Origin: an uncultured Bacteroidaceae bacterium
Lineage (GTDB): Bacteria; Bacteroidota; Bacteroidia; Bacteroidales; GCA-2748055
Direction: 5' to 3'
Length of the DNA stretch: 64,000 nt
NCBI GenBank assembly: GCA_964426915.1
Contig: CAYRTD010000003.1
Span: 67-64,066 of the forward strand
A program made the position numbers and the translations under genes. This document shows positions 936-14,842 of this stretch, piece after piece. Each line of letters opens with the position of its first letter. The first letter of the stretch is position 1. The notes below the pieces were generated by a model. The model was not told where the DNA came from and did no database searches. It was given only the letters and a program-made list of their open reading frames with translations.

Positions 936-3900
936 ATGAGATTTCTTCCTGTAATCTTTCTATTCCTTTTTCAGGGTATAATTGGCCAGACAACTTATTT
1001 TACAAGGAATATCGAATGGGAGGTCCCCCTGACAAAGAATGTTTCAGGAAACTTTAAAGATATAACTTCATTTAAAAACTCTTATTATCAGGATATTAAA
1101 TCTTTATTTCCTTTATATTATAATAATATAGCTATTGAAGACAAAATTTCCGATTATTCTTTGTCTCTTATCCGCACTGAAACACAAGTGATTTCCCGGG
1201 ATCATCTGCCAGCTTATTTTACCGATGAATTGACGGATAATTTTGAATTAAAGTCCTACAGTTCCATTGAAAATGGGAAGAATATAATTCAATATACAAT
1301 TTTTCCTTTCCGGTTAAATCCTTTGACTGGTAAAACGGAACGGCTTCTTTCTTTTGCTCTTCAACTGGATGTTACTGAAAAGTTGCAAGCCGCAGAAAAA
1401 GGAATGCGGAAATCCCATAAGATCATTAATTCTCCTCTGGCCACCGGAGATTGGTATAAAATAAGGGTTGAACAGGAAGGTATTCATAAAATCACTTATA
1501 GTGATATTAGCGGACTCGGAATTGCCAATCCGGATAATGTCAGAATTTACGGATGGGGAGGAAGACGCCTGCCGGAAGATTCCCGGGAAGGAATTCAGCA
1601 CGAATTTGTTGAAATTCCCGTATTCATGGACCGTGGTGATGATGGAATATTCAACAATAATGATTACCTGCTTTTTTATGCTCTCGGCACTGTAAGCTGG
1701 AAGTATGATGAAGGGGATGACTATTTCTCTCACGAAAAGAATCCTTACTCTGATTATGGTTTCTATTTCCTCACCTCAGGAGAAAGTCCGGCTCCTGTGC
1801 CCGTCGATGCTAATGTTCCGGAAGAATCTCCCGATTACATAACTGACAGTTATGATGCACTGGATTATCATGAGAAAGATGAAGTGAACCTTATTAAATC
1901 AGGAAAGGAATGGTATGGAGAGATCTTTGACATTACCAATGAGAGAACCTTTTCCTTCAGCGTTCCAAACCTGGAAGCTTCATCTCCTGTCAGGCTGAAA
2001 ACGAACCTTCTGGGCCGTGCAAAAGATTCCAGCAGTTTCATGGTATATGCAAATAACAAAATACTCGATACCGCAGCCATTAGATACACAAGCATTGGTG
2101 ATTATACGGCAAGGCATGCCTTCACCAGCTCCGGGATTTACTCTTTCTTTTCTTCGAATAGTACTTTTAATATTAAGCTTAGATATCTCAAGCCCGATCC
2201 AACAGCAATGGGGTGGCTCGATTATCTTTCGGTGAATGCCCGGGCTCAGTTAAAACTAACCGAAAATCAATTGCTTTTCAGGGATAAGTTTAGCTTGAAT
2301 TCTTTCGTAACCGAATATAAGCTTAAAGATGCTTCCACATCAACACAGGTCTGGGATATCTCAAACTACCCTGTTGTCCGGAATGTTCCCGGAACTCTCA
2401 CTGGGAACTTATTTTCTTTTAAGTCGGATGGAGGTGAGATCCGTGAATTTATTGCTTTTAATCCTGCCGGGAATTTTCCCGGAGTAAGATTCGATAGTGA
2501 AGGCCTTGGCAGGATTGATAATCAAAATCTTATGGGTAGCGGACACCCCGATATGGTGATTATCAGTTATGAAGACTTTTTGCCTTCTGCCAAAAAATTA
2601 GCTGAATTTCGAACCTTAAATAATGAACTGGATGTGCTGGTCACAACTCCTCAAAAAATTTATAATGAATTTTCATCCGGCAGGCCGGATATAACTGCAA
2701 TCAGGAATTTTATGCAATACCTTTACCTGGGAGCAGGAGATGATGATGATCTGAAACCGCAATACCTTCTTTTATTCGGAGATGGATCCTATATTTTCAA
2801 AAGTGATAATCCGAATGACGGAAATTTTGTGCCTGCATATCAGTCGGATGAAAGTCTTTCTCCCATTTCCTCATTCGTTACGGATGATTTTTACGGTCTT
2901 CTGGATGAGGGTGAAAATATCTACAGTGGATTACTTGATATTGGTATCGGCCGCTTGCCGGTTACAAATACAGAGGAAGCTGAGGCCATGACAGAGAAGA
3001 TTATCCGTTATGAGTCTCCCGATCGACAAGGAGAATGGAGAAATACAATCGTTTTTGTCGGAGATGATGAGGATAATAATCTTCACTTTAATCAGGCTGA
3101 TGGATTGGCCAGGTATGTTGAGAATAATTACCCTGCTTTCAATGTTAACAAGATCTATCTTGATGCCTATCAGCAGGTATCAACCCCGGTGGGTCAGCGT
3201 TATCCCGAGGTAAATAAAGCGATCAATAACCAGGTAAACAAGGGTGCTCTTATTTTGAATTATACAGGGCATGGCGGCACCAAAGGTCTTGCTGATGAGA
3301 GAATTCTGGAATTAAATGATATTCAGTCATGGGAAAATGAGGGACAGTTACCACTTTTTATGACTGCTACCTGTGAATTCAGCCGGTTCGACGATCCTGG
3401 CCGGGTTTCCGCCGGTGAGAAGGTTATTCTAAGTGCCAGAGGTGGCGGAATAGCATTGCTGACAACCACAAGACTTGTCTATGCCGGTCCGAATCATGTT
3501 CTGAATGAAAAATTTTATGAAATTGTTTTCGAAAAAAATGAGAAGGGTAAAAATTATTGTCTCGGGGAGATAATGAAATATAGTAAAAATAATGCCGGTG
3601 TAGGTATTAATAAAAGAAACTTCACTCTTCTTGGGGATCCTGCAATGAGGCTTACTTATCCATTTCATAATATTGTGGCCGATTCGGTTAATCAAAAGGA
3701 GGTGGAATCCGGTGCAGATACATTAAAGGCGCTCTCAACTGTTACTATCAGTGGTCATGTTGAGAATGCTGCAGGGGATCTCCTGGATTCATTTAACGGG
3801 TTCATTTACCCCACTGTTTACGACAAACCCAATGAGCAAACAACACTTGCCAATGATGGTGGAAGTAAAAAGACCTTTAAAGTAAGGAACAGTTTACTAT

Positions 3901-4742
3901 ATAGAGGCAAGGCAACAATCGACAATGGGTATTTTGAATTTAGCTTTATAGTTCCGAAGGATATTAATTATTCCTATGGATCTGGTAAGATTAGTTTTTA
4001 TGCATCCGACAGTATGACAGATGCCTCTGGTGCATATATGGATTTCCTGGTTGGGGGATCCTCTCAGGAAATAATTGCTGATTCTGAAGGTCCAGAGTTG
4101 AAGGTTTATATGAATAACAACTTTTTTACAGCGGGAGGAATAACCGATAAAAGCCCGGTGCTTTTTGTGGAAGTATTTGATGAACATGGTATAAATACAA
4201 CCGGAAATGGCATCGGTCATGACATTACCGCCATATTGAACGGAGATTCTCAGAACAGCATTGTTCTTAATGAATACTACCAGGCTGATCTTAACAGCTA
4301 TCAGAGTGGAACTATTACTTATCCTCTCAGCGGGCTTGAAGAAGGGCGTCACGTTATTGATGTTAAGGTATGGGATATTTTTAATAATTCATCCACAGGA
4401 TCAACAGAATTTGTTGTGGTGAATTCTCAGGATATGCTGCTGGAGAATCTTATGAATTATCCGAATCCCTTTAAAGAAAATACTTACTTTAGTTTCGAGC
4501 ATAATAAGTCTGATCAGGATCTTGATATTACTATTGATATTTTTGATATGAGCGGTGCTCTGGTTCGTACCATAAAAGCAAAAGAATTTGGATCCGGTTT
4601 CAGATCCCAGCCGGTTTACTGGAACGGAAAGAACGAAGCTGGTAATCACAGCAGACAAGGGACTTATCTTTACCGGATAAGGGTCGTCAGTTCAGATGGG
4701 ACAGAAGCTGCCAGGAGCGGCAGATTAATTATATTACGATAA
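936..4742 (+). CDS. porU: T9SS C-terminal-signal peptidase/sortase PorU (gingipain C25-like)
   Basis: 1268 aa with signal peptide MRFLPVIFLFLFQGIIGQ. Contains C25-like catalytic His and Cys contexts (NYTGHGGTKG and LFMTATCEFSRFDD). The C-terminus looks like a T9SS sorting domain (NYPNPFKENTYFSF..IDIFDMSGALV..GTYLYRIRV). It lies immediately upstream of porV, the classic porU-porV pairing. Confidence 0.85.
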   Translation: MRFLPVIFLFLFQGIIGQTTYFTRNIEWEVPLTKNVSGNFKDITSFKNSYYQDIKSLFPLYYNNIAIEDKISDYSLSLIRTETQVISRDHLPAYFTDELTDNFELKSYSSIENGKNIIQYTIFPFRLNPLTGKTERLLSFALQLDVTEKLQAAEKGMRKSHKIINSPLATGDWYKIRVEQEGIHKITYSDISGLGIANPDNVRIYGWGGRRLPEDSREGIQHEFVEIPVFMDRGDDGIFNNNDYLLFYALGTVSWKYDEGDDYFSHEKNPYSDYGFYFLTSGESPAPVPVDANVPEESPDYITDSYDALDYHEKDEVNLIKSGKEWYGEIFDITNERTFSFSVPNLEASSPVRLKTNLLGRAKDSSSFMVYANNKILDTAAIRYTSIGDYTARHAFTSSGIYSFFSSNSTFNIKLRYLKPDPTAMGWLDYLSVNARAQLKLTENQLLFRDKFSLNSFVTEYKLKDASTSTQVWDISNYPVVRNVPGTLTGNLFSFKSDGGEIREFIAFNPAGNFPGVRFDSEGLGRIDNQNLMGSGHPDMVIISYEDFLPSAKKLAEFRTLNNELDVLVTTPQKIYNEFSSGRPDITAIRNFMQYLYLGAGDDDDLKPQYLLLFGDGSYIFKSDNPNDGNFVPAYQSDESLSPISSFVTDDFYGLLDEGENIYSGLLDIGIGRLPVTNTEEAEAMTEKIIRYESPDRQGEWRNTIVFVGDDEDNNLHFNQADGLARYVENNYPAFNVNKIYLDAYQQVSTPVGQRYPEVNKAINNQVNKGALILNYTGHGGTKGLADERILELNDIQSWENEGQLPLFMTATCEFSRFDDPGRVSAGEKVILSARGGGIALLTTTRLVYAGPNHVLNEKFYEIVFEKNEKGKNYCLGEIMKYSKNNAGVGINKRNFTLLGDPAMRLTYPFHNIVADSVNQKEVESGADTLKALSTVTISGHVENAAGDLLDSFNGFIYPTVYDKPNEQTTLANDGGSKKTFKVRNSLLYRGKATIDNGYFEFSFIVPKDINYSYGSGKISFYASDSMTDASGAYMDFLVGGSSQEIIADSEGPELKVYMNNNFFTAGGITDKSPVLFVEVFDEHGINTTGNGIGHDITAILNGDSQNSIVLNEYYQADLNSYQSGTITYPLSGLEEGRHVIDVKVWDIFNNSSTGSTEFVVVNSQDMLLENLMNYPNPFKENTYFSFEHNKSDQDLDITIDIFDMSGALVRTIKAKEFGSGFRSQPVYWNGKNEAGNHSRQGTYLYRIRVVSSDGTEAARSGRLIILR

Positions 4743-4783
4743 AATATAATTTTTATGATCATTTTGAGTTATTAGTTTATTAG

Positions 4784-4809
4784 TCGGATAGGCAATCCGG
4801 TTGTTTTTT
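4784..4809 (+). terminator. Weak hairpin plus T-run downstream of porU
   Basis: tcggat-aggca-atccgg stem followed by ttgtttttt. The stem is short, so this may be only an attenuator between porU and porV. Confidence 0.3.
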
Positions 4810-4897
4810 AGAATTTATTACCATTCAATCAATTAGTAATCATATAAGTATAGTTAACTATCATTGTTTAAAAGACAGCATGTATCTATTTTTCTAT

Positions 4898-4905
4898 TAT
4901 ATTTG
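4898..4905 (+). promoter_or_regulatory. Bacteroidota-type -7 promoter box (TAnnTTTG) upstream of porV
   Basis: TATATTTG lies 24 nt upstream of the porV ATG. It matches the Bacteroidetes sigma-A -7 consensus TAnnTTTG. I found no clear -33 element. Confidence 0.35.
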
Positions 4906-4928
4906 CGGTCATTAAAAAAATAAAAAGA

Positions 4929-6140
4929 ATGTTGTTTAATTTGAATTCGAAGAAAGTTCTTGTCCTGTTATTTTTTGTAGGATTAATAACATCGGCCTCA
5001 TTCGCCCAGATAACTACAGGGGATTTGACCGGGCAGATGAATGTTATTCAGTCGGCGGTTCCTTTTTTAACCATCGCTCCCGATTCCCGATCTGGTGCTA
5101 TGGGTGATGTTGGTGCCGCCACAGCTCCGGATATTAATTCTCAGCACTGGAATCCTGCGAAATATGTTTTTATGGAAGGCCAGGGGGGAGCCGCACTGTC
5201 TTATACTCCTTGGTTAAGACGATTGATCCCGGATATTAATCTTGCTTATTTGGTCGCTTATAAAAAACTTGACGGACTACAGGCTGTTTCTGCATCACTG
5301 AGATATTTTTCGCTGGGTAATATTGTTTTTACCAATATATTCGGAACCCCTCAGGGAGAATTTAATCCCAATGAATTTGCTATTGACCTCGGATATTCCC
5401 GTTTGTTTTCTGATAATTTTTCAGGTGCTATAGTGTTCCGTTTCATACGTTCAGATCTTACCGGAGGAAAATATGTGGGAGATATTGATTCCAAAGCCGG
5501 GATTGCTGTGGCTTCCGATATCGCTTTTTATTATACCAATGATATTGACCTTGGAGTTAATGATGGTCGATTATCTTTTGGGACCAATATATCCAACATG
5601 GGAAATAAAATCTCCTATACAGAGACCCAGGAGCCTGCATTTTTGCCTATTAACTGGAGATTGGGTGGAAATCTTGATCTTGAGATCGATGACTATAACT
5701 CGTTCTCTTTCGCTCTTGACCTGAACAAACTTCTGGTCCCTACACCCCCTATATACAGCGACACAGCTGACATGGTACTTCGGGGAATGGATCCTAACGT
5801 TTCTGTGCCATTAGGTATGTTACAATCTTTCTATGACGCTCCCGGCTATGAACTTGATGACGGTACCTACAGCGTTTTCAGGGAGGAATTGGCTGAAATA
5901 ACCTACAGTCTTGGTGTTGAATACTGGTACAGAGAACAGTTCGCCATAAGGGGAGGCTATTTTCATGAACACCGGAATAAAGGGAATAGAAAGTATTTTT
6001 CTCTGGGTGTAGGATTGAAGCTAAACGTATTCGAACTGGATTTTGCCTACCTGATCCCCACCTATCCAAACAATCCTCTGGCAAATACCCTGAGGTTTAC
6101 ACTCGGTTTTGATTTTGATAAATACCGGGCTTCAAATTAA
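4929..6140 (+). CDS. porV: T9SS outer-membrane shuttle/channel protein PorV (LptO)
   Basis: 403 aa with a signal peptide. Carries the conserved PorV N-terminal block [25 protein letters not shown] and has a beta-barrel-like alternating pattern ending in an aromatic-rich C-terminus. Adjacent to porU. Confidence 0.85.
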
Positions 6141-6681: not shown

Positions 6682-8619
6682 TTAATCAATGTTTATTTCC
6701 GGAAACTCCAGAAGTCTCTTTTTAATTGTTTCTTCCAGAAAGTATATTTCTTCCTTCAAACTATCGTTGTTTTCCATAAATGCACTGAACCTGACAAGTG
6801 AAAGAATGGATTGATAATATTTTAGAGTCTGAATGTCATAGGGATCTTCGTCTGAGATCTGTGTTTTCAAAATATTCTCTTTGAGTTCTTCAAAATACCT
6901 TCTAAAGGCCTCTTTTGCCAAATCGGATTTGTCAGTGGTGTAAAGATTGTCGATGAGAAAAAGATAGTAATAGTTTATCCCTGTACTTTCCGGTGGGTAT
7001 TTATTAATGAAATCAATTATAAGTTCATCCGTTTTATCATGATTACCCATACTCTCATTATGGTAGATCTGAATAAAGCTTGCTTCGAGTATCAGGTTGA
7101 AAATAATGACTCTGCTAAAATATTCTGTATCCGGGATCTCTAGTGTTGTTTTTCTTATCAGGGTATTAAGAGCACCGGTGTCAAAATAATTGTTTTCAAA
7201 TAATACAGCCTGATGATTTTTCTTTTCAATACAATAGTAAAGTCCTTTATCTATAAGGTGATTTACATCTATCATTGACTTAAACCGTGGCTGCATGCCC
7301 TTGCTGAAATACAGCGGACGTTTTCCAATCTGAGCATTGATTATGCTTCTGACAAGAAATTCTGAGGTAGACTGAACGTTGCCCCTGTTGCCGCTACTTA
7401 ATCTCAGGGTGTCAAACAGACCCTCACCGGTGAGATAATCTATATTATAATCTCCATTTGGGATGGTTATTACCGGATTATCTCCTCTAAGCTCCTCAGT
7501 CACGAAAGACGATTCCCGATCAAAAGACAATGACCGGGGGGCATTATCATCAATAAGAATAGTCTTCTTTTCAAGCAAGAATATTTGTTCTTTAGTAAAA
7601 CTGCTTTCCAGTTTATTATCCAAATTGCTATCGTCGGTAATAAGATGGTAATATAAGGGATCGCTCAGGAGTGAAAGATTTATGATCCTGATGTCCTGCC
7701 GGAAATTCTTAATTTCCTGCATCCATAAAAGAGGATAAGTATCATTATCTCCGTTGGTAAATAATATGCCATTTTTTTTCAGAGGTGAAAGGATCTCCCG
7801 GGCATATTTTTCCCAGAATGGCTGGTATAAATGCTGAACATTATGTTCTTCAAGTAATTTCTCCGCTTCTCTTCGGAAACCAAATATGTTCAATTCGAAA
7901 TAATGGTTCATTACTTCATTGGCATATTTTAAATCCATCAGGCCTATAAGGGTTCGGTAACCGGGTGACCTTTCGTACAGGATATGCAAATATCTCAATG
8001 AATTTTCTGCATATTCCAGATATAATTTTGCATCTCTTCTTTCCGCCTGTGTTCCTCTGGCCTGGGATGGATCAGAGTAATGAGAATGTGACCAGAGAAT
8101 ATCGGATGCTTTTTGTGCATAGGCGCGTGCCAGGCCATATAATTCATTGTCGGAAAGAATGGCAGTTTCTTTATTCTCAAGATGAATGATTACATCATCT
8201 GTCCAGCCCTGGTATCCATAAAAGGGATGGGTTGTAAAATCGTAAAGATCCCGGTTGGAAATTAATTCTGTTATAAATACTTCTTTGCTGTTTTTTCCCG
8301 GATCAATATTGGAAGGATAATAATCTGTTGCAGACCAAATCAGGATAGGGTTTTCATTTTTATGTGAAAAATACAACGGCAGAACATGCCAGCCATTTGG
8401 ATCACGGATAAAATTAAAACGGTAAAAATTTTCATTACGATAAGTGTTCAGTTCAAAATTCTGAGCAAATACATTTGCTATCTCTTCCAGATCCGGATAG
8501 GTAAAAGGTTCGGGTTGGTCATTATCCCGGGCCAGCGAAATGAAGGGTAACAATAATAATAGAATAAACCAGGGACATTTTCTTCGTTCCAGATATGATA
8601 ATGTGTGTTTAATGATCAT
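6682..8619 (-). CDS. Hypothetical secreted protein (645 aa)
   Basis: Long uninterrupted ORF with an N-terminal hydrophobic signal (CPWFILLLLLPFISLA). I recognised no catalytic motif. The block ILFTNGDNDTYPLLWMQEIKNFRQDIRIINLSLL resembles, from memory, the soluble domain of DUF2723-type Bacteroidota proteins. Confidence 0.6.
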   Translation of the reverse strand: MIIKHTLSYLERRKCPWFILLLLLPFISLARDNDQPEPFTYPDLEEIANVFAQNFELNTYRNENFYRFNFIRDPNGWHVLPLYFSHKNENPILIWSATDYYPSNIDPGKNSKEVFITELISNRDLYDFTTHPFYGYQGWTDDVIIHLENKETAILSDNELYGLARAYAQKASDILWSHSHYSDPSQARGTQAERRDAKLYLEYAENSLRYLHILYERSPGYRTLIGLMDLKYANEVMNHYFELNIFGFRREAEKLLEEHNVQHLYQPFWEKYAREILSPLKKNGILFTNGDNDTYPLLWMQEIKNFRQDIRIINLSLLSDPLYYHLITDDSNLDNKLESSFTKEQIFLLEKKTILIDDNAPRSLSFDRESSFVTEELRGDNPVITIPNGDYNIDYLTGEGLFDTLRLSSGNRGNVQSTSEFLVRSIINAQIGKRPLYFSKGMQPRFKSMIDVNHLIDKGLYYCIEKKNHQAVLFENNYFDTGALNTLIRKTTLEIPDTEYFSRVIIFNLILEASFIQIYHNESMGNHDKTDELIIDFINKYPPESTGINYYYLFLIDNLYTTDKSDLAKEAFRRYFEELKENILKTQISDEDPYDIQTLKYYQSILSLVRFSAFMENNDSLKEEIYFLEETIKKRLLEFPEINID

Positions 8620-8884
8620 CTTATAATAAAGGTCGTGGAAAAATCGTTTATTTTATCTTAAATAATTAACTTAATATCCTTAAATTATAGTATATTGAAT
8701 AGCCTCATTATTCTAAACCCGAACAGGAAAAAAGTATGCATTTTCTTTTTACAGGAACAGGTATATTTTCATAAATAAATTGACCAGTCCTGGCTGCTTG
8801 AATTATAATTCTTGTTTATTTTAAGCAAGTCAATATACAAAACTAATTTTGTATATATACTGTGTACCTGCTGAATTATCATAA

Positions 8885-10312
8885 TTGGCAATATTGAATT
8901 TAAACATGAGTATTCACATGATAAAACTAATTGTAAACTTTGTTACAATAATTGGACTGTCGTGCTTTAGCCTGATGGCCCAAAATTATGAGCTGAAGAT
9001 AGAGGTAAGGGATTATCCCGGTGAGAAAGTTTATCTTGCATTGATCCAGGGAGATGATGTTGTTCCTATGGATTCTGCTGTGGTATCCGGAGACCATTTT
9101 GTTTTTTCACTGGAAGAGAATAGTGTCCCTGGAATGTACAGAGTCGTTTTTCCCTTAACTCAAAATAATCAGGGGAGAAGAGACCCCCTTTTGCTTGATA
9201 TAATTTTCAATCAGGAGGATATTGAACTTATAACCAGTTATCCACAAGTTTCCAATGAAGTTGAAGTAATAAACTCTGAAGAAAACAAAAAGTACTTTCG
9301 ATTTTTGAAGCTTGAATCCGATTACCGGAAGCATCTTGCGCTATTGTTTCCCCTGGCAGAATTGTATGACACTTCAGATTCTTTTTTTGAAGCTCTTCAT
9401 CAGGAATTGATATATATTCAGAAGGATTACAATAATTCTCTTGTAAAATTGGCAAATACAGATCCGGATATGCTGGTTTCTTCTATAATAAGCCTCCATA
9501 TGGAACCGGTTTACGATCCTCTGATAAACGGAGACCCTATAACATTTATGAAAGATAATTACCTTAGACCTGTGAGCTTTAATGATGGGCGCCTCATTAA
9601 CACTAAGTATTTATCACAGAAAATTATTTCATATTTAAGTTTTTACCGTCAGGATAATTCTTCATCTAAAAGGGAACAGGAAGAATCTTTTATTGAGGCT
9701 GTCGATAAAATTATGCAGGAGGTCAGTTATAATGAAAAGATATATGATTTCGTACTTAATTATCTGATCGATGGATTCGAAAAATTCCAGATGGAAGAAG
9801 TGTTGGTTCATATTGCTGAAAATCATTTGGATGGGGAGTGTAAAACTGAAAGTGAGGAAATTGTGAAAGAAAGACTGGAGGCCTATAAACGTATGGCCCA
9901 TGGTAATAAAGTGCCTGACATTAACCTGCTTGATCCCTTTGATATTCCCTATCGACTCTCATCCATAGAAGAGCAGATGATTTTACTCGTTTTCTGGTCA
10001 ACTGAATGTCCACATTGTACGAATTTGATGCCTCGCCTGGATAAATGGTATACAAATGAGAATAATGATAAAAGGCTTGAAATTTATACGGTTTCTATTG
10101 ATAAAAGCAGGGCAGACTGGGAAGAGTATATTCTTATGACTGAACCCGGAGGGATACATGTTTATGATCCTGAGGGCTGGGAGAGCAAAACATCACAAAG
10201 ATACAATCTATATGCCACTCCTACCATGTTTCTCCTGGATGAAGAATTGCGAATCCTTGACAAGCCTGTAACTTTCAGAGATTTTAAAAGCGCATTTGAA
10301 AAGTTTAGATAG
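8885..10312 (+). CDS. TlpA-like thiol:disulfide oxidoreductase (thioredoxin fold, AhpC/TSA family) with a long N-terminal domain
   Basis: 475 aa. The C-terminal thioredoxin-fold domain carries the CxxC motif VFWSTECPHCTNLMPRL. The signal-like segment MIKLIVNFVTIIGLSCFSLMAQ suggests the real start may be the ATG at 8918 rather than the TTG at 8885. Confidence 0.8.
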   Translation: MAILNLNMSIHMIKLIVNFVTIIGLSCFSLMAQNYELKIEVRDYPGEKVYLALIQGDDVVPMDSAVVSGDHFVFSLEENSVPGMYRVVFPLTQNNQGRRDPLLLDIIFNQEDIELITSYPQVSNEVEVINSEENKKYFRFLKLESDYRKHLALLFPLAELYDTSDSFFEALHQELIYIQKDYNNSLVKLANTDPDMLVSSIISLHMEPVYDPLINGDPITFMKDNYLRPVSFNDGRLINTKYLSQKIISYLSFYRQDNSSSKREQEESFIEAVDKIMQEVSYNEKIYDFVLNYLIDGFEKFQMEEVLVHIAENHLDGECKTESEEIVKERLEAYKRMAHGNKVPDINLLDPFDIPYRLSSIEEQMILLVFWSTECPHCTNLMPRLDKWYTNENNDKRLEIYTVSIDKSRADWEEYILMTEPGGIHVYDPEGWESKTSQRYNLYATPTMFLLDEELRILDKPVTFRDFKSAFEKFR

Positions 10313-10334
10313 TGTCCGTCAATAAAGTCGGGTG

Positions 10335-10380
10335 GAGTCCGGGTAGAGCGGCGAAGTAATGAGCCACTCTACCCGGACTC
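10335..10380. terminator. GC-rich perfect 14-bp hairpin between convergent genes (candidate bidirectional terminator or repeat unit)
   Basis: GAGTCCGGGTAGAG (10335-10348) and CTCTACCCGGACTC (10367-10380) are exact reverse complements with an 18-nt loop. The hairpin sits between the TlpA-like gene (+) and the DoxX gene (-). No clean T-run follows on either strand. Confidence 0.45.
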
Positions 10381-10431
10381 AAAATTAAGGGGGATTGTTA
10401 ATTTATTCCCTTTTCGGAGCTGATTCAAAAA

Positions 10432-10866
10432 TTATCTTTTGTTTTTACTAATCAGATGGTCCAGGCTTATTTTCCCCGATCCGTAAACCATTAGAGTAAA
10501 TAACATAAGGAAGTAATACAAAGGAATTTCAAATCCGTTATTTCCTGCTGCAAAGCCATTACCGATGTGGACTGTGAAAATTGCAACCAGCATAACTATC
10601 ATCAGTGGTATACTTATAAACCTTGTTCCGAATCCGATGAATAACAGAATTGCACCCAGAAATTCGGTAATTCCCGCCAAATATGCATTTATCAGCGGTA
10701 AAGGATAATTCATGCTGGCAAACCATTCAGCAGTACCGCCGAAATCTTTAATTTTATTAAGTCCGGGTTGAAAAAAGCCATAAGCAAGAATTAGCCGTAA
10801 AAAGAGGAGTGGTAGATCCCTTATTTGCTCAACTTTACGAGCGAAATTTTGATAAACGGTACTCAT
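10432..10866 (-). CDS. DoxX-family integral membrane protein (bufD-like position in the MNIO operon)
   Basis: Four predicted TM helices with a DoxX-like pattern (LPLLFLRLILAYGFFQPGLNKI..). The track ORF extends to 10983, but that extension overlaps the upstream gene. The ATG at 10866 (MSTVYQNF..) gives a typical 144-aa DoxX protein. Confidence 0.8.
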   Translation of the reverse strand: MSTVYQNFARKVEQIRDLPLLFLRLILAYGFFQPGLNKIKDFGGTAEWFASMNYPLPLINAYLAGITEFLGAILLFIGFGTRFISIPLMIVMLVAIFTVHIGNGFAAGNNGFEIPLYYFLMLFTLMVYGSGKISLDHLISKNKR

Positions 10867-10894: not shown

Positions 10895-11647
10895 TTAGTT
10901 AACAAAGCCCAGGATGGCTTGTTTATTTTTGAGGTCGGAAATAAAATGTGACAGGTTGGAAATAAGCTTTTTCTCATTCTCAAAACCGAACATGACTTTT
11001 ACCTGGGGTATCAGCTTTTTGACGCTTAACTTCTCTGTTGTTATTTTTTCGTAAACCCATGCATGAAATAGGGAAAGATTAAAGAAATTTACGTTTCCGG
11101 TGTTTTTTTGTCTGCTCACAAGGACAAAATAATTTCCTTCATTTTTTTCAGCATCGACAACATTCATTATGTGAACGGGATAGTTTAACTGGATCAGACG
11201 TGACTCAGGATTGGTTATAAGAATATCTTCCATGATATTGCCTGTTTCATTAAATTCCGGTGATACGATGTCAGGCATGGTATGAACTTCTATTTCGATC
11301 CATTCAAAAAGTAATAGATCGTTCAGCCATAATTTTCCGGTTTTTTTTCGGAAATCCGATTCAAGTGCGTATTCGTAAAATTCATTGGGTAGTTTCCAGA
11401 TCTGCGGGGTTTGAGCTTTATGATTGCTGAAAAAATCATGTACCAGAGCCGTGAATTTTTCTTCACCCATCACTTGTAAAGTTAAGGGATATGCCTGTTT
11501 CATGGTATTTTTAACTACATTGAATACCAACCTGCGATAATGGTGGATCCTGTTTTTATTAATTCCTGGAATTTCCCGAATCTTTCCTGTTCTGCAATAA
11601 ATTCCCAGATTGTTTTGGGCACTAGTTGTTTGTTCCTGAAGCTTCAT
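10895..11647 (-). CDS. DUF2063-family protein (MbnC/BufC-like partner of the MNIO enzyme)
   Basis: 250 aa. The N-terminal block RIHHYRRLVFNVVKNTMKQAYPLT matches the DUF2063 signature (..vYrnnv...l...fP..). It overlaps the DUF692 gene's 3' end by 26 nt, and the DUF692-DUF2063 pairing is canonical. Confidence 0.75.
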   Translation of the reverse strand: MKLQEQTTSAQNNLGIYCRTGKIREIPGINKNRIHHYRRLVFNVVKNTMKQAYPLTLQVMGEEKFTALVHDFFSNHKAQTPQIWKLPNEFYEYALESDFRKKTGKLWLNDLLLFEWIEIEVHTMPDIVSPEFNETGNIMEDILITNPESRLIQLNYPVHIMNVVDAEKNEGNYFVLVSRQKNTGNVNFFNLSLFHAWVYEKITTEKLSVKKLIPQVKVMFGFENEKKLISNLSHFISDLKNKQAILGFVN

Positions 11648-12533
11648 GATGTACCTCCCAGGTATTTTTTGTTATTTCTCTTAGTTTTGATAACTCTGCA
11701 TTTAATGCATCTAATTCATCGAAATTGTAATCTCTTTCTAAAAGTACCGGAACCGGATCCATCTTGCTTACCGTCCAGGCGAAAAGTTCATACACAGGAT
11801 CAATTATTGGCTGGCCGTGTGTATCGATAATCAGATCGGGTTCCACCTGCTCATGTCCTGCCATATGAATATAGGCCACCTTGTCAAGAGGAAGCCCGGA
11901 TATGAAATCATAAGGGTCGTACTTATGGTTAAAACTGTTAACATAGACGTTGTTTACATCCAAAAGCAACTGACAGTCTGCTTCTTTTACAATCTCATTA
12001 ATGAAGTCCAGTTCACTCATTTCAGCTGCTACCGGTGTATAATAGGAGACGATCTCTATGGCAATTTTTCTTTCCAGTATTTCCTGTGCCTGCCTTATTC
12101 TCCCTGCTACATGATAAACCGCATCTTCTTTAAAGGGAATAGGAAGAAGATCGTACATGTGAGCATTCTGACTTTTAGTATAACTTAAATGTTCGGAAAA
12201 AATCTGAACATTGTATTCATTTAGAAATTTTTTTAAATCTCTAAGGAAATTTATATCCAGTTCATCGGGACTTCCTAATGACATAGAAAGACCATGGCAG
12301 GTGGCAGGATATTTTTGTGTAGCTTCATTAAGAATTTTTTTCCAGTAACCACCGATACCCATCCAGTTTTCTGGTGCAAATTCAATAAAATCAGGATTCA
12401 GCCTGTCTGAGTTTATAAGAACATCTGCGATATCCCTTCTGAATCCTATGCCGGTACTTATATTCATAATAATTGTTTTAAAGGAATCCACGTTCGGATA
12501 ACGATCATCAAGATAACACCCATGATCACTCAA
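11622..12533 (-). CDS. DUF692/UPF0276 multinuclear non-heme iron oxidase (MNIO, MbnB/BufB-like RiPP maturase)
   Basis: Conserved DUF692 blocks are all visible: GIGFRRD, FIEFAPENWMG, CHGLSMSLGS, FSEHLSY, IAIEIVSYY, LLLDVNNVYVNSFNH, YIHMAGH, IIDTHGQPI and LLERDYNF, which carry the His/Asp/Glu metal-ligand positions of a TIM barrel. The likely true start is the ATG at 12467 (MNISTGIGFRRD), giving 281 aa. Confidence 0.88.
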   Translation of the reverse strand: MSDHGCYLDDRYPNVDSFKTIIMNISTGIGFRRDIADVLINSDRLNPDFIEFAPENWMGIGGYWKKILNEATQKYPATCHGLSMSLGSPDELDINFLRDLKKFLNEYNVQIFSEHLSYTKSQNAHMYDLLPIPFKEDAVYHVAGRIRQAQEILERKIAIEIVSYYTPVAAEMSELDFINEIVKEADCQLLLDVNNVYVNSFNHKYDPYDFISGLPLDKVAYIHMAGHEQVEPDLIIDTHGQPIIDPVYELFAWTVSKMDPVPVLLERDYNFDELDALNAELSKLREITKNTWEVHHEASGTNN

Positions 12534-12754
12534 CCTTTACTTTTTGGATCACCACCCTTACGTGAATTCCCTGTTTTGCATTTATAGTTAGAAGAAATTG
12601 TAAATTATTTGTCCTGCCTTTGTTAAAAGAGGAACTACATTTAGTGAAATTCCGCTTTCCAGGCAACATTAGTCTTGCTTCCGACCTTTTATTAAGGATC
12701 CAGTCAGGAAAAATCAGTTTTATACTGAGTGCAGACTAATTGGATAACAGATGT

Positions 12755-13207
12755 TTAACCACATTTTCCTTCACCGCATTTTGCTTCGGAAGTTTTTTCT
12801 TCGCTTGTTTTCTTTTCAGATTTCGCTTCTGTTTTTTTGGCTTTCTTTTCTTCTTTACCTTCACCACATTTACCTTCACCACATTTTCCTTCGGAAGTTT
12901 TATTCTCAGCCTTTTTGCCTTCAGCTTTTTTACTCTCTTTTTTTTTGGCTTCTTTTTCACCTTCTCCCTCGCCACATTTACCTTCACCGCATTTTAATTC
13001 ACCGAATTTGTAGGTGGCTTCACTGTTTAGAATATCTGGTGCATTGAGGTTCATGATTGCACTTCTGACTTCTGCTCCAGTTCCCATTGAAGCATAGTTT
13101 GGGAGATCTGCATTCATGTTGCCTGCAGCAAATGCTGAAATTGAAGTTGTTAATGCTGCTCCTGTTATTAATGAAGCTGATTTGAGGATCTTTTTGTCTT
13201 TTTTCAT
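12755..13207 (-). CDS. Sec-signal Cys-repeat RiPP precursor (bufferin/oxazolin-like; three KCGEGKCG doublets)
   Basis: 150 aa. Signal peptide MKKDKKILKSASLITGAALTTSISAFA|AG, followed by a roughly 45-aa region. The only six Cys (73, 78, 109, 114, 144, 149) all lie in K-C-G-E-G-K-C-G doublets separated by Lys/Glu-rich spacers, and the protein ends ..AKCGEGKCG*. It is the first gene of the MNIO operon. Confidence 0.8.
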   Translation of the reverse strand: MKKDKKILKSASLITGAALTTSISAFAAGNMNADLPNYASMGTGAEVRSAIMNLNAPDILNSEATYKFGELKCGEGKCGEGEGEKEAKKKESKKAEGKKAENKTSEGKCGEGKCGEGKEEKKAKKTEAKSEKKTSEEKTSEAKCGEGKCG

Positions 13208-13510: not shown

Positions 13511-13945
13511 ATGAAGCATATACTTATTTTTGTATTCTTTTATTTCTTTTCTCTGTCATTGTTTGGGCAAAATACTGCGGATCTTGAGGTGGTGGTTGAA
13601 GACCTAAGAAATGAGCAAGGAAAAATCGGCCTCAGTCTGTTTAACGATTCTGACGGATTTCCTGAAGATAATGACAGAGCCTTTAGATGGAAAACAGTTA
13701 ACGCAGATAATGAAAAAGTCGTTTTTTATTTCCGGGATCTTAGACCGGGAGAGTACGCTTATGCTATTCTTCATGATGAAGATGGGAACGGTGAAATGAA
13801 AAAAAGTGTTTTTGGGATTCCTAAGGAAGGTTTTGGTTTTTCCAATAATTATAAACCCAAAATTAAAAATCCTTCTTTTGAGGATGCTTCTTTTTCTTTA
13901 AAGCCAGGGATGAACAAGCATGTCGTAGAAATCATTTATTTCTGA
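13511..13945 (+). CDS. DUF2141-domain periplasmic protein
   Basis: 144 aa with a signal peptide. The pattern GKIGLSLFNDSDGFPED..YAYAILHDEDGNGEMKKSVFGIPKEGFGFSNN matches the DUF2141 signature. It is transcribed divergently from the RiPP precursor. Confidence 0.75.
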   Translation: MKHILIFVFFYFFSLSLFGQNTADLEVVVEDLRNEQGKIGLSLFNDSDGFPEDNDRAFRWKTVNADNEKVVFYFRDLRPGEYAYAILHDEDGNGEMKKSVFGIPKEGFGFSNNYKPKIKNPSFEDASFSLKPGMNKHVVEIIYF

Positions 13946-14278: not shown

Positions 14279-14842
14279 TTATCCCTCCTTTGTCTGCTGA
14301 TTATAATACTGCTGGAAATCCATTTTCTCATAAATTTCATCAGCAAGAAATGTGAGAATAATACGAAGATCTTCTGCGGATTTATATCCCGGCAAAGGTT
14401 GTATCATGTTCATTTCTTCATCCAGAAATACGATACTGGGATAGGAGAGTTGATTGTTCAGAAGCGCACCCGCAAGCTCGTGGTATCCGCGGGAGCCGTT
14501 TTTTAAATATTTGAATTCCTGGGCTTTGTATGTTATTGACTCTTTCGACTCTGCATCAAATGATACAGGAATAAACCTTTCATTCAAAAGTTTTATTACT
14601 TTTTCATCTTCAAAACTTGTGCTTTCCATTTTTTTACACCAACCGCACCAGTCTGTATGAACAAATATAAAATACTTTTTGCCTGAATTCTCTATTTCAG
14701 CAGCAGCTTCAAACGATTTCCAGTTTATCTCTGAAATTTCCCCTGAACGGGAATTGTTATTCTTTACAGGTCTTTCAGTTGAAAAGGAAGCTGTCAAAAG
14801 AATCCCTATAAAAAGTATTGTGGTAATCTTTAATGTATTCAT
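14279..14842 (-). CDS. Thioredoxin-fold protein (DUF255/thioredoxin-like, secreted)
   Basis: 187 aa with a signal peptide and the CxxC motif in FVHTDWCGWCKKME. Confidence 0.8.
   Translation of the reverse strand: MNTLKITTILFIGILLTASFSTERPVKNNNSRSGEISEINWKSFEAAAEIENSGKKYFIFVHTDWCGWCKKMESTSFEDEKVIKLLNERFIPVSFDAESKESITYKAQEFKYLKNGSRGYHELAGALLNNQLSYPSIVFLDEEMNMIQPLPGYKSAEDLRIILTFLADEIYEKMDFQQYYNQQTKEG

Follow-up and report, generated by a model that had tools for sequence, protein, structure and literature searches.

The window analysed here, a stretch of 64,000 nucleotides (nt) of contig CAYRTD010000003.1 from an uncultured Bacteroidaceae bacterium, carries on its minus strand an intact operon with the gene order hvfA-hvfB-hvfC-hvfX. 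The first gene (12755..13207) codes for a protein of 150 amino acids (aa) and is very probably the precursor gene of a copper-binding ribosomally synthesized and post-translationally modified peptide (RiPP) of the oxazolin or 'Buf_EGKCG' type. The assignment to the HvfA family is based on matches to profile hidden Markov models (HMMs) and on the gene order. The main features are compiled in Table 1.

Table 1. Features of the hvfA-hvfB-hvfC-hvfX locus and of the remaining window.
Feature	Position	Strand	Basis and remarks
hvfA-like precursor gene, 150 aa	12755..13207	-	ATG start; open reading frame and translation
Predicted Sec signal peptide, residues 1-27; AFA|AG is the likely signal peptidase I site	13127..13207	-	sequence features
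Cys-free N-terminal segment, residues 28-71; candidate HvfC docking region	12995..13126	-	alignment, motif counts
KCGEGKCG cassette 1, residues 72-79 (Cys73, Cys78)	12971..12994	-	translation
KCGEGKCG cassette 2, residues 108-115 (Cys109, Cys114)	12863..12886	-	translation and DNA repeat
KCGEGKCG cassette 3, residues 143-150 (Cys144, Cys149)	12758..12781	-	translation and DNA repeat
hvfB, multinuclear non-haem iron oxidase (MNIO, formerly DUF692)	11622..12533	-	NF003818, PF05114; maximal reading frame from TTG, likely ATG at 12467
hvfC, DUF2063/NGO1945-type substrate-binding partner	10895..11647	-	PF09836, PF22106; overlaps the hvfB end by 26 nt
hvfX, DoxX-family membrane protein	10432..10866	-	NF050144, PF07681; reading frame up to 10983, likely start M40 at 10866
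Type IX secretion genes: 1268-aa Peptidase_C25 protein (PorU-like) and PorV	936..6140	+	
TlpA/ResA-like thioredoxin-fold protein with DUF4369 N-terminal domain	8885..10312	+	profile match
DUF2141 protein	13511..13945	+	profile match
DsbH/thioredoxin-like protein	14279..14842	-	profile match
TPP (thiamine pyrophosphate) riboswitch RF00059	39866..39964	+	67.3 bits (gathering score 54.3); only Rfam match in the window

The precursor passed the model NF050137 'KCGExKCG_twice' (HvfA family oxazolone/thioamide-modified RiPP metallophore) with 22.7 bits at a cut-off of 19.5. HvfB reached 377 bits with NF003818, the 'HvfB family MNIO-type RiPP peptide maturase' (cut-off 360), and matched PF05114 with E = 3e-97; among solved structures, 3BWW, a DUF692 protein, is the closest (E = 1.5e-62). 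HvfC scored 56.7 with PF09836 (threshold 27.2) and 27.3 with PF22106, the NGO1945 C-terminal domain (threshold 27), and it matched PDB entry 3DEE with E = 7e-6. HvfX was assigned to NF050144, the 'HvfX family Cu-binding RiPP maturation protein', with 132.8 at a cut-off of 80, and to the DoxX family PF07681 with 82.9. We also considered a terminator or an RNA element in the hvfA-hvfB intergenic region and rejected both, as this region displayed neither a significant RNA fold (z-score -1.04) nor a terminator-like site on the minus strand nor an Rfam match.

All six cysteines of the precursor are confined to three identical KCGEGKCG units (73/78, 109/114 and 144/149). Each of them lies in a KCG context, which reads ELKCG and EAKCG once each and EGKCG four times. 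A TAA stop codon at 12755-12757 follows directly on the third unit, the glycine of KCG being the last codon. The units start 36 and 35 residues apart and are separated by spacers of 28 and 27 aa with a joint composition of K18 E16 A6 G5 S5 T4 N1, while the distance between the first and the last Cys is 76 residues. The region between the putative signal peptide and the first unit comprises 44 aa (residues 28-71) without any Cys. The original prediction, made from the sequence alone, had described precisely this placement of the cysteines and the end on KCG, a motif spacing of roughly 35 residues, linkers consisting almost purely of K, E, A, T and S, and a Cys-free segment of about 45 aa. The first two points are exact in the translation, and the measured distances and compositions bear out the others.

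The DNA segments coding for the motif had been recognized as near-repeats as well. In fact, any two of the three 24-nt segments differ at two positions, and all differences are synonymous changes at third-codon positions. The DNA repeat continues into the flanks of the motif and gives copies of 65-69 nt with 77-82% identity, which are 105 and 108 nt apart. As the similarity extends beyond the motif ends, the repeat unit of the precursor is a cassette of about 35 aa (KTSE[GA]-KCGEGKCG-EG...) born of internal duplication, and the cassette is kept by selection on the protein. Three identical eight-residue units within 150 aa, together with their conservation in hundreds of homologues, exclude a chance origin.

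Database comparison revealed 577 homologues of the precursor at E <= 1e-3, the best of which is 73% identical. Named homologues belong to Bacteroidales, Marinilabiliaceae, Carboxylicivirga and Labilibacter; their annotation reads 'hypothetical' or 'uncharacterized low-complexity protein'. The concern that automated annotation would miss such genes was thus not borne out, since the 577 homologues are called. Furthermore, we scanned species-representative genomes with HvfB and obtained 80 related loci, 77 of which contain enough upstream sequence to be informative for the precursor. Their hosts are Bacteroidales, Marinilabiliaceae, Chitinophaga, Sphingobacteriaceae, Vicingaceae, Cryomorphaceae, Calditrichaceae and Ignavibacteriales, and the closest HvfB relative, from the locus L001, shares 86% identity. 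In all 80 loci hvfC is located after hvfB, and hvfX is present in 48, with several contigs stopping early. A homologous precursor ORF (open reading frame) precedes hvfB in 77/77 informative loci and displays a signal-peptide-like start, the motif G-x-G-x-x-[VLI]-R and then KCG-type units.

This strict co-occurrence with hvfB and hvfC bears on the possibility that the product is an unmodified Cys-rich periplasmic protein, in which the KCG doublets serve as thiol/disulfide (CxxxxC) metal or redox sites and hvfBC do not act on it. Unmodified HvfA of H. influenzae does bind about 2-3 Cu(I) (PMC11252979), and thioredoxin-like genes flank the locus on both sides (plus strand and minus strand, respectively; Table 1). 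However, each such Cys is modified in every characterised homologue, and apart from L001 and L002, the two closest relatives, no related locus keeps the thioredoxin-like neighbours. We therefore regard a function of the bare thiols as very unlikely. The same distribution holds for the DUF2141 gene, and we therefore do not count any of these flanking genes as a component of the system; their synteny is probably a matter of local gene order.

The arrangement of the Cys clusters is less constant than the motif itself. Among 120 homologues about 20 patterns were found (3, 3-2, 2-2, 2-2-2, 1-3 and others), with the 2-2-2 pattern of the precursor occurring in 10 of them. The spacers range from 9 to 57 aa with a median of 27 and are composed of K, E, A, T, S, G and D. 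A C-terminal ...CG end is present in 29/120 homologues, and long K-rich tails are common in the rest. For instance, P0019, P0022, P0040-P0053 and others carry a long Lys-rich tail (...KKKKSDK or ...KKKK), often after a single KCGEGKCGEGKCG triplet. Hence the comparison with homologues proposed at the outset gave a divided answer: the N-terminal segment, the frame and the EGKCG units are conserved (77/77 loci), but motif number, spacing and the end on the motif are not. The layout with three doublets spaced by about 35 residues and the last of them at the C-terminus is one variant among many.

The variable spacers could also be read in another way, which the original prediction had raised as an alternative, namely that the precursor is a polyprotein, which a host protease cuts in the Lys-rich spacers after modification and export, thereby freeing three short copper-binding thiooxazole peptides (approximately KCGEGKCG plus flanks) in place of one multivalent chain. 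The spacers are indeed Lys-rich, predicted to be disordered and variable in both length and sequence, as expected for expendable linkers, and the literature leaves both an intact chain and cutting by host proteases possible for EGKCG products. On the other hand, the conserved operon consists of A, B, C and X only and includes no protease gene, a small product was not detected in Microbulbifer (PMC12538549), and the many homologues with a single triplet cluster followed by a long K-rich tail do not have the layout of a polyprotein. Release of three separate peptides is thus an unlikely fate of the chain.

Four further ORFs overlap the precursor gene in other frames, one on the minus strand (12736..12987, 83 aa) and three on the plus strand (12740..12997, 85 aa; 12751..13047, 98 aa; 12837..13013, 58 aa). 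Spurious ORFs in three other frames had been anticipated; they are present, their number being four rather than three. They are by-products of AAA/GAA-rich coding. Overlapping frames of 58-98 aa might nevertheless be taken to mean that 12755..13207 is a low-complexity artefact and that the true gene lies in another frame or on the opposite strand. Against this, the alternative products are F/L/S- or K/R-rich, and none of the four matched any NCBIfam model. Moreover, only synonymous differences exist between the three motif copies, and the product of the 12755..13207 frame contains invariant residues and is conserved in no fewer than three lineages of phylum level. Conservation of the reading frame had been named beforehand as the check on which the gene should stand or fall, and the frame is kept along with the EGKCG units and the N-terminal segment in every informative related locus. 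In view of these conservation data, the artefact explanation is already effectively refuted and has next to no probability left.

The N-terminus of the precursor consists of a basic stretch (MKKDKKILK), an uncharged stretch (residues 10-27) and A-F-A at positions -3 to -1, features which are compatible with a signal peptide. Sec signal peptides have been reported for Buf_EGKCG/oxazolin precursors (PMC12452194). In the Cys-free segment that follows, an alignment of 50 homologues displayed the motif G-[ST]-G-x-x-[VLI]-R, in which G42, G44 and R48 are invariant. G74 is invariant, too, and S43, E70, K72, C73 and E75 are nearly so. The more general form G-x-G-x-x-[VLI]-R is found in 119/120 best homologues, in addition to all informative loci. 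No Pfam or NCBIfam model matched the segment. When it was compared on its own with 1.84 billion representative sequences, two matches were obtained, the nearest homologue and an unrelated repetitive protein of 833 aa, the 45-aa query being too short for this library. Since the segment is conserved, it is a plausible recognition region for HvfC.

An AlphaFold2 model of the precursor, built with 50 sequences, had a mean predicted local distance difference test (pLDDT) score of 51 and is therefore usable only as a hint of disorder. It contains a helix at residues 4-29, corresponding to the predicted signal peptide, and a short helix at residues 44-55 just past the G-S/T-G motif, with block means of 65-69 over residues 41-60. 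Beyond residue 65 the model is free of secondary structure and pLDDT drops below 50, which gives weak evidence that the spacers may be flexible, disordered tethers.

A precursor of this kind is not new, as the HvfA/oxazolin system has already been described, with characterised relatives from Haemophilus, Fontimonas, Neisseria and Microbulbifer. HvfA of nontypeable H. influenzae (NTHI1441) comprises 95 aa and contains three AEGKCGEGKCG motifs as well as a signal peptide of 24 aa that is removed in E. coli; HvfB and HvfC modify all six motif Cys with a mass change of -4 Da each (PMC11252979). The modification was first assigned as oxazolone/thioamide and later revised to 5-thiooxazole (2026 preprints). 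Cu(I) data for the modified peptide, oxazolin, fit one Cu(I) for every two modified residues (PMC11252979). Like HvfA, the precursor described here combines a predicted Sec signal, an N-terminal region and three two-Cys cassettes with MNIO, DUF2063 and DoxX partners. In contrast to HvfA, it comprises 150 instead of 95 aa, has K/E-rich spacers of 27-28 aa instead of short linkers and lacks the disulfide-forming Cys pair in the N-terminal region. Its 44-aa N-terminal segment contains G-S/T-G-x-x-V-R, and its score with NF050188, the equivalog model of H. influenzae HvfA, is 33.8 bits at a cut-off of 95. Going by the NTHI locus numbers, doxX (NTHI1440) precedes hvfA in H. influenzae, in contrast to the order A-B-C-X found here, and the host of the present locus is of the Bacteroidota type rather than a member of the Pasteurellaceae.

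For comparison with a second characterised precursor we used the sequence of the fontiphorin precursor FonA of Fontimonas thermophila, a member of the 'captophorin' Lys-Cys group (PMC12668002). BLASTP aligned both proteins near end-to-end with 39% identity (E = 1e-15). In this alignment ASMGTGAEVRSA of the post-signal segment pairs with SDLGAGYMVASA, the counterpart in FonA includes SDLGAGYMVAS, and the EGKCG clusters are aligned. Owing to the near end-to-end alignment, the post-signal segment is probably homologous across the family. LGSGA-type N-terminal strings did not occur in the searched part of the supplementary files of the survey in PMC12668002, which covers Pseudomonadota reference genomes only. 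The modification of FonA is a 5-thiooxazole produced by an MNIO-PME1 pair, and FonBC acted on a shortened substrate carrying two EGKCG repeats, whereas a substrate with only one repeat was left unmodified (PMC12668002). This requirement for two repeats fits the doublet as the working unit. FonA differs from the precursor described here in having seven Cys, arranged 2-3-2, and spacers of about 10 aa.

Three cassettes of two Cys each are also found in MmrA, the bulbicupramide precursor of Microbulbifer, in which all six Cys are modified (-4H each) and whose product binds Cu(I) (PMC12538549). MmrA has a conserved N-terminal 'leader' and variable core repeats (5-8 Cys), its cluster contains no protease, and the operon is not induced by copper (PMC12538549). 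Its host is a gammaproteobacterium, and the first and the sixth modified Cys are 34 aa apart, compared with 76 residues here. The text of PMC12538549 does not mention a DoxX gene, whereas hvfX is present in the locus described here.

The Buf_EGKCG/oxazolin family has been defined as about 2,000 precursors with a signal peptide, mostly from Pseudomonadota, whose genes neighbour those for MNIO, DUF2063 and DoxX proteins (Microbial Genomics 2025, PMC12452194). The locus shares with it the repeated EGKCG, the signal-peptide-like start and the three types of neighbours. Type 1 of this family has 17-residue repeats modelled as a beta-helix (PMC12452194), in contrast to the period of 35-36 residues and the disorder suggested by AlphaFold2 in our case. 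As in bufferins (Buf1/DUF2282, Buf2) and methanobactins, an MNIO together with a partner would turn Cys into Cu-binding heterocycles; bufferins, too, bear Sec signal peptides, and DoxX genes occur in their clusters. Unlike bufferins, however, the precursor has neither DUF2282 nor any other Pfam match, and HvfB scored 268 with the BufB model NF050167 (cut-off 310). Its score with the MbnB model TIGR04159 was only 45.8 (cut-off 325). In methanobactins the precursors are short and devoid of a signal peptide, and they receive oxazolone/thioamide groups; the present precursor has 150 aa and a signal-peptide-like N-terminus.

Judged by the characterised homologues, from which chemistry, export and copper binding are inferred, the pathway might proceed as follows. 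HvfC would bind the 150-aa pre-peptide in the cytoplasm, probably helped by the conserved G-S/T-G-x-x-V-R segment, and the iron- and O2-dependent HvfB would oxidise all six KCG cysteines to 5-thiooxazole, with -4 Da each. The product would be exported by Sec and cut by signal peptidase I near AFA|AG, leaving a largely disordered mature chain of about 123 aa in the periplasm or further out. Each KCGEGKCG doublet would provide two N,S-bidentate heterocycles jointly holding one Cu(I), amounting to about three Cu(I) per molecule, and the flexible Lys/Glu-rich tethers would space the copper sites. Copper sequestration or buffering outside the cytoplasm is the likely role. The original prediction had pictured a secreted chelator of the beads-on-a-string type, in which every Cys doublet forms one metal site and the cysteines are modified by the DUF692/DUF2063 pair. 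This coincides with the published model of the family except for the type of ligand, as 5-thiooxazoles take the place of thiols. The idea that a doublet forms one bidentate site does not hold, because by homologue chemistry each site uses two bidentate ligands.

Several observations weigh against the assignment to a copper-binding oxazolin-type pathway or against parts of it. The NF050188 match is limited to residues 102-150, the repeat region, and with its score below the cut-off the precursor is a member of the family rather than an ortholog-level equivalog. HvfC remained below the cut-off of NF050145 (119 versus 142). The core of the predicted signal peptide is moderately hydrophobic, with a maximal 9-residue Kyte-Doolittle mean of 1.73. 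Regarding the role of the N-terminal segment, the corresponding region of HvfA improves modification but is dispensable (PMC11252979), and no single N-terminal position is required in FonA (PMC12668002). We found no literature experiments on this precursor or any Bacteroidota homologue and no copper-related genes among the neighbours scanned. Finally, both a chalkophore function and copper protection have been proposed as the role of the family.

It is conceivable that the subfamily from Bacteroidota, Calditrichaceae and Ignavibacteriales represents a functional variant. G-x-G-x-x-[VLI]-R would then be an obligatory HvfC docking element retained on the exported product, and the spacers would act as protease sites freeing small thiooxazole chalkophores or as polycationic envelope anchors. 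We consider this unlikely; if true, it would show in which mature form EGKCG peptides occur.

Compared with the described systems, the differences are modest and concern the lineage, the period of 35-36 residues that includes long spacers with predicted disorder, the missing N-terminal disulfide pair and a conserved segment not covered by any Pfam or NCBIfam model. The locus adds a delimited, intact four-gene oxazolin-type cluster from Bacteroidota and allies, a lineage that is not treated in the published surveys consulted; one of these places the family mostly in Pseudomonadota (PMC12452194), and another covers only this phylum (PMC12668002). Within the Bacteroidota-and-allies lineage, the motif and G-x-G-x-x-[VLI]-R are kept, and cassette number and spacer length vary. 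The result is of value for annotation because such genes are still named 'hypothetical' or 'low-complexity protein', and it aids the choice of substrates for studying peptide recognition by HvfC.

In the closest relative, L001 (CAZGTU010000012.1, 5511..8522), the operon looks decayed, whereas the copy in the window is intact. The hvfC gene of L001 is cut down to an ORF of 67 aa (6860..7063), hvfX is missing and a TlpA-like gene follows directly. Its HvfA retains only three Cys: of the first doublet one KCG is left, and the middle doublet has disappeared. Upstream of hvfA, L001 carries on the plus strand an ORF of 97 aa (5015..5308) with Cys pairs (MIACDE..., LLSCKYCLRY), which might encode a small zinc-finger or anti-sigma-like regulator. 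Nothing equivalent is present in the window, where the gap between hvfA and the DUF2141 gene measures only about 300 bp.

The type IX secretion genes encoding the PorU-like protein and PorV support a Bacteroidota origin of the window. Genes for IspF, fucose isomerase, an S41 peptidase and a MutS-related protein are also among the neighbours. The 64-kb window yielded no tRNA genes. An ORF of 645 aa on the minus strand (6682..8619) had no Pfam match at E <= 1e-5. L001 contains an ORF of 646 aa (8698..10638) in the corresponding place beyond the TlpA-like gene, and the product may be a conserved protein.

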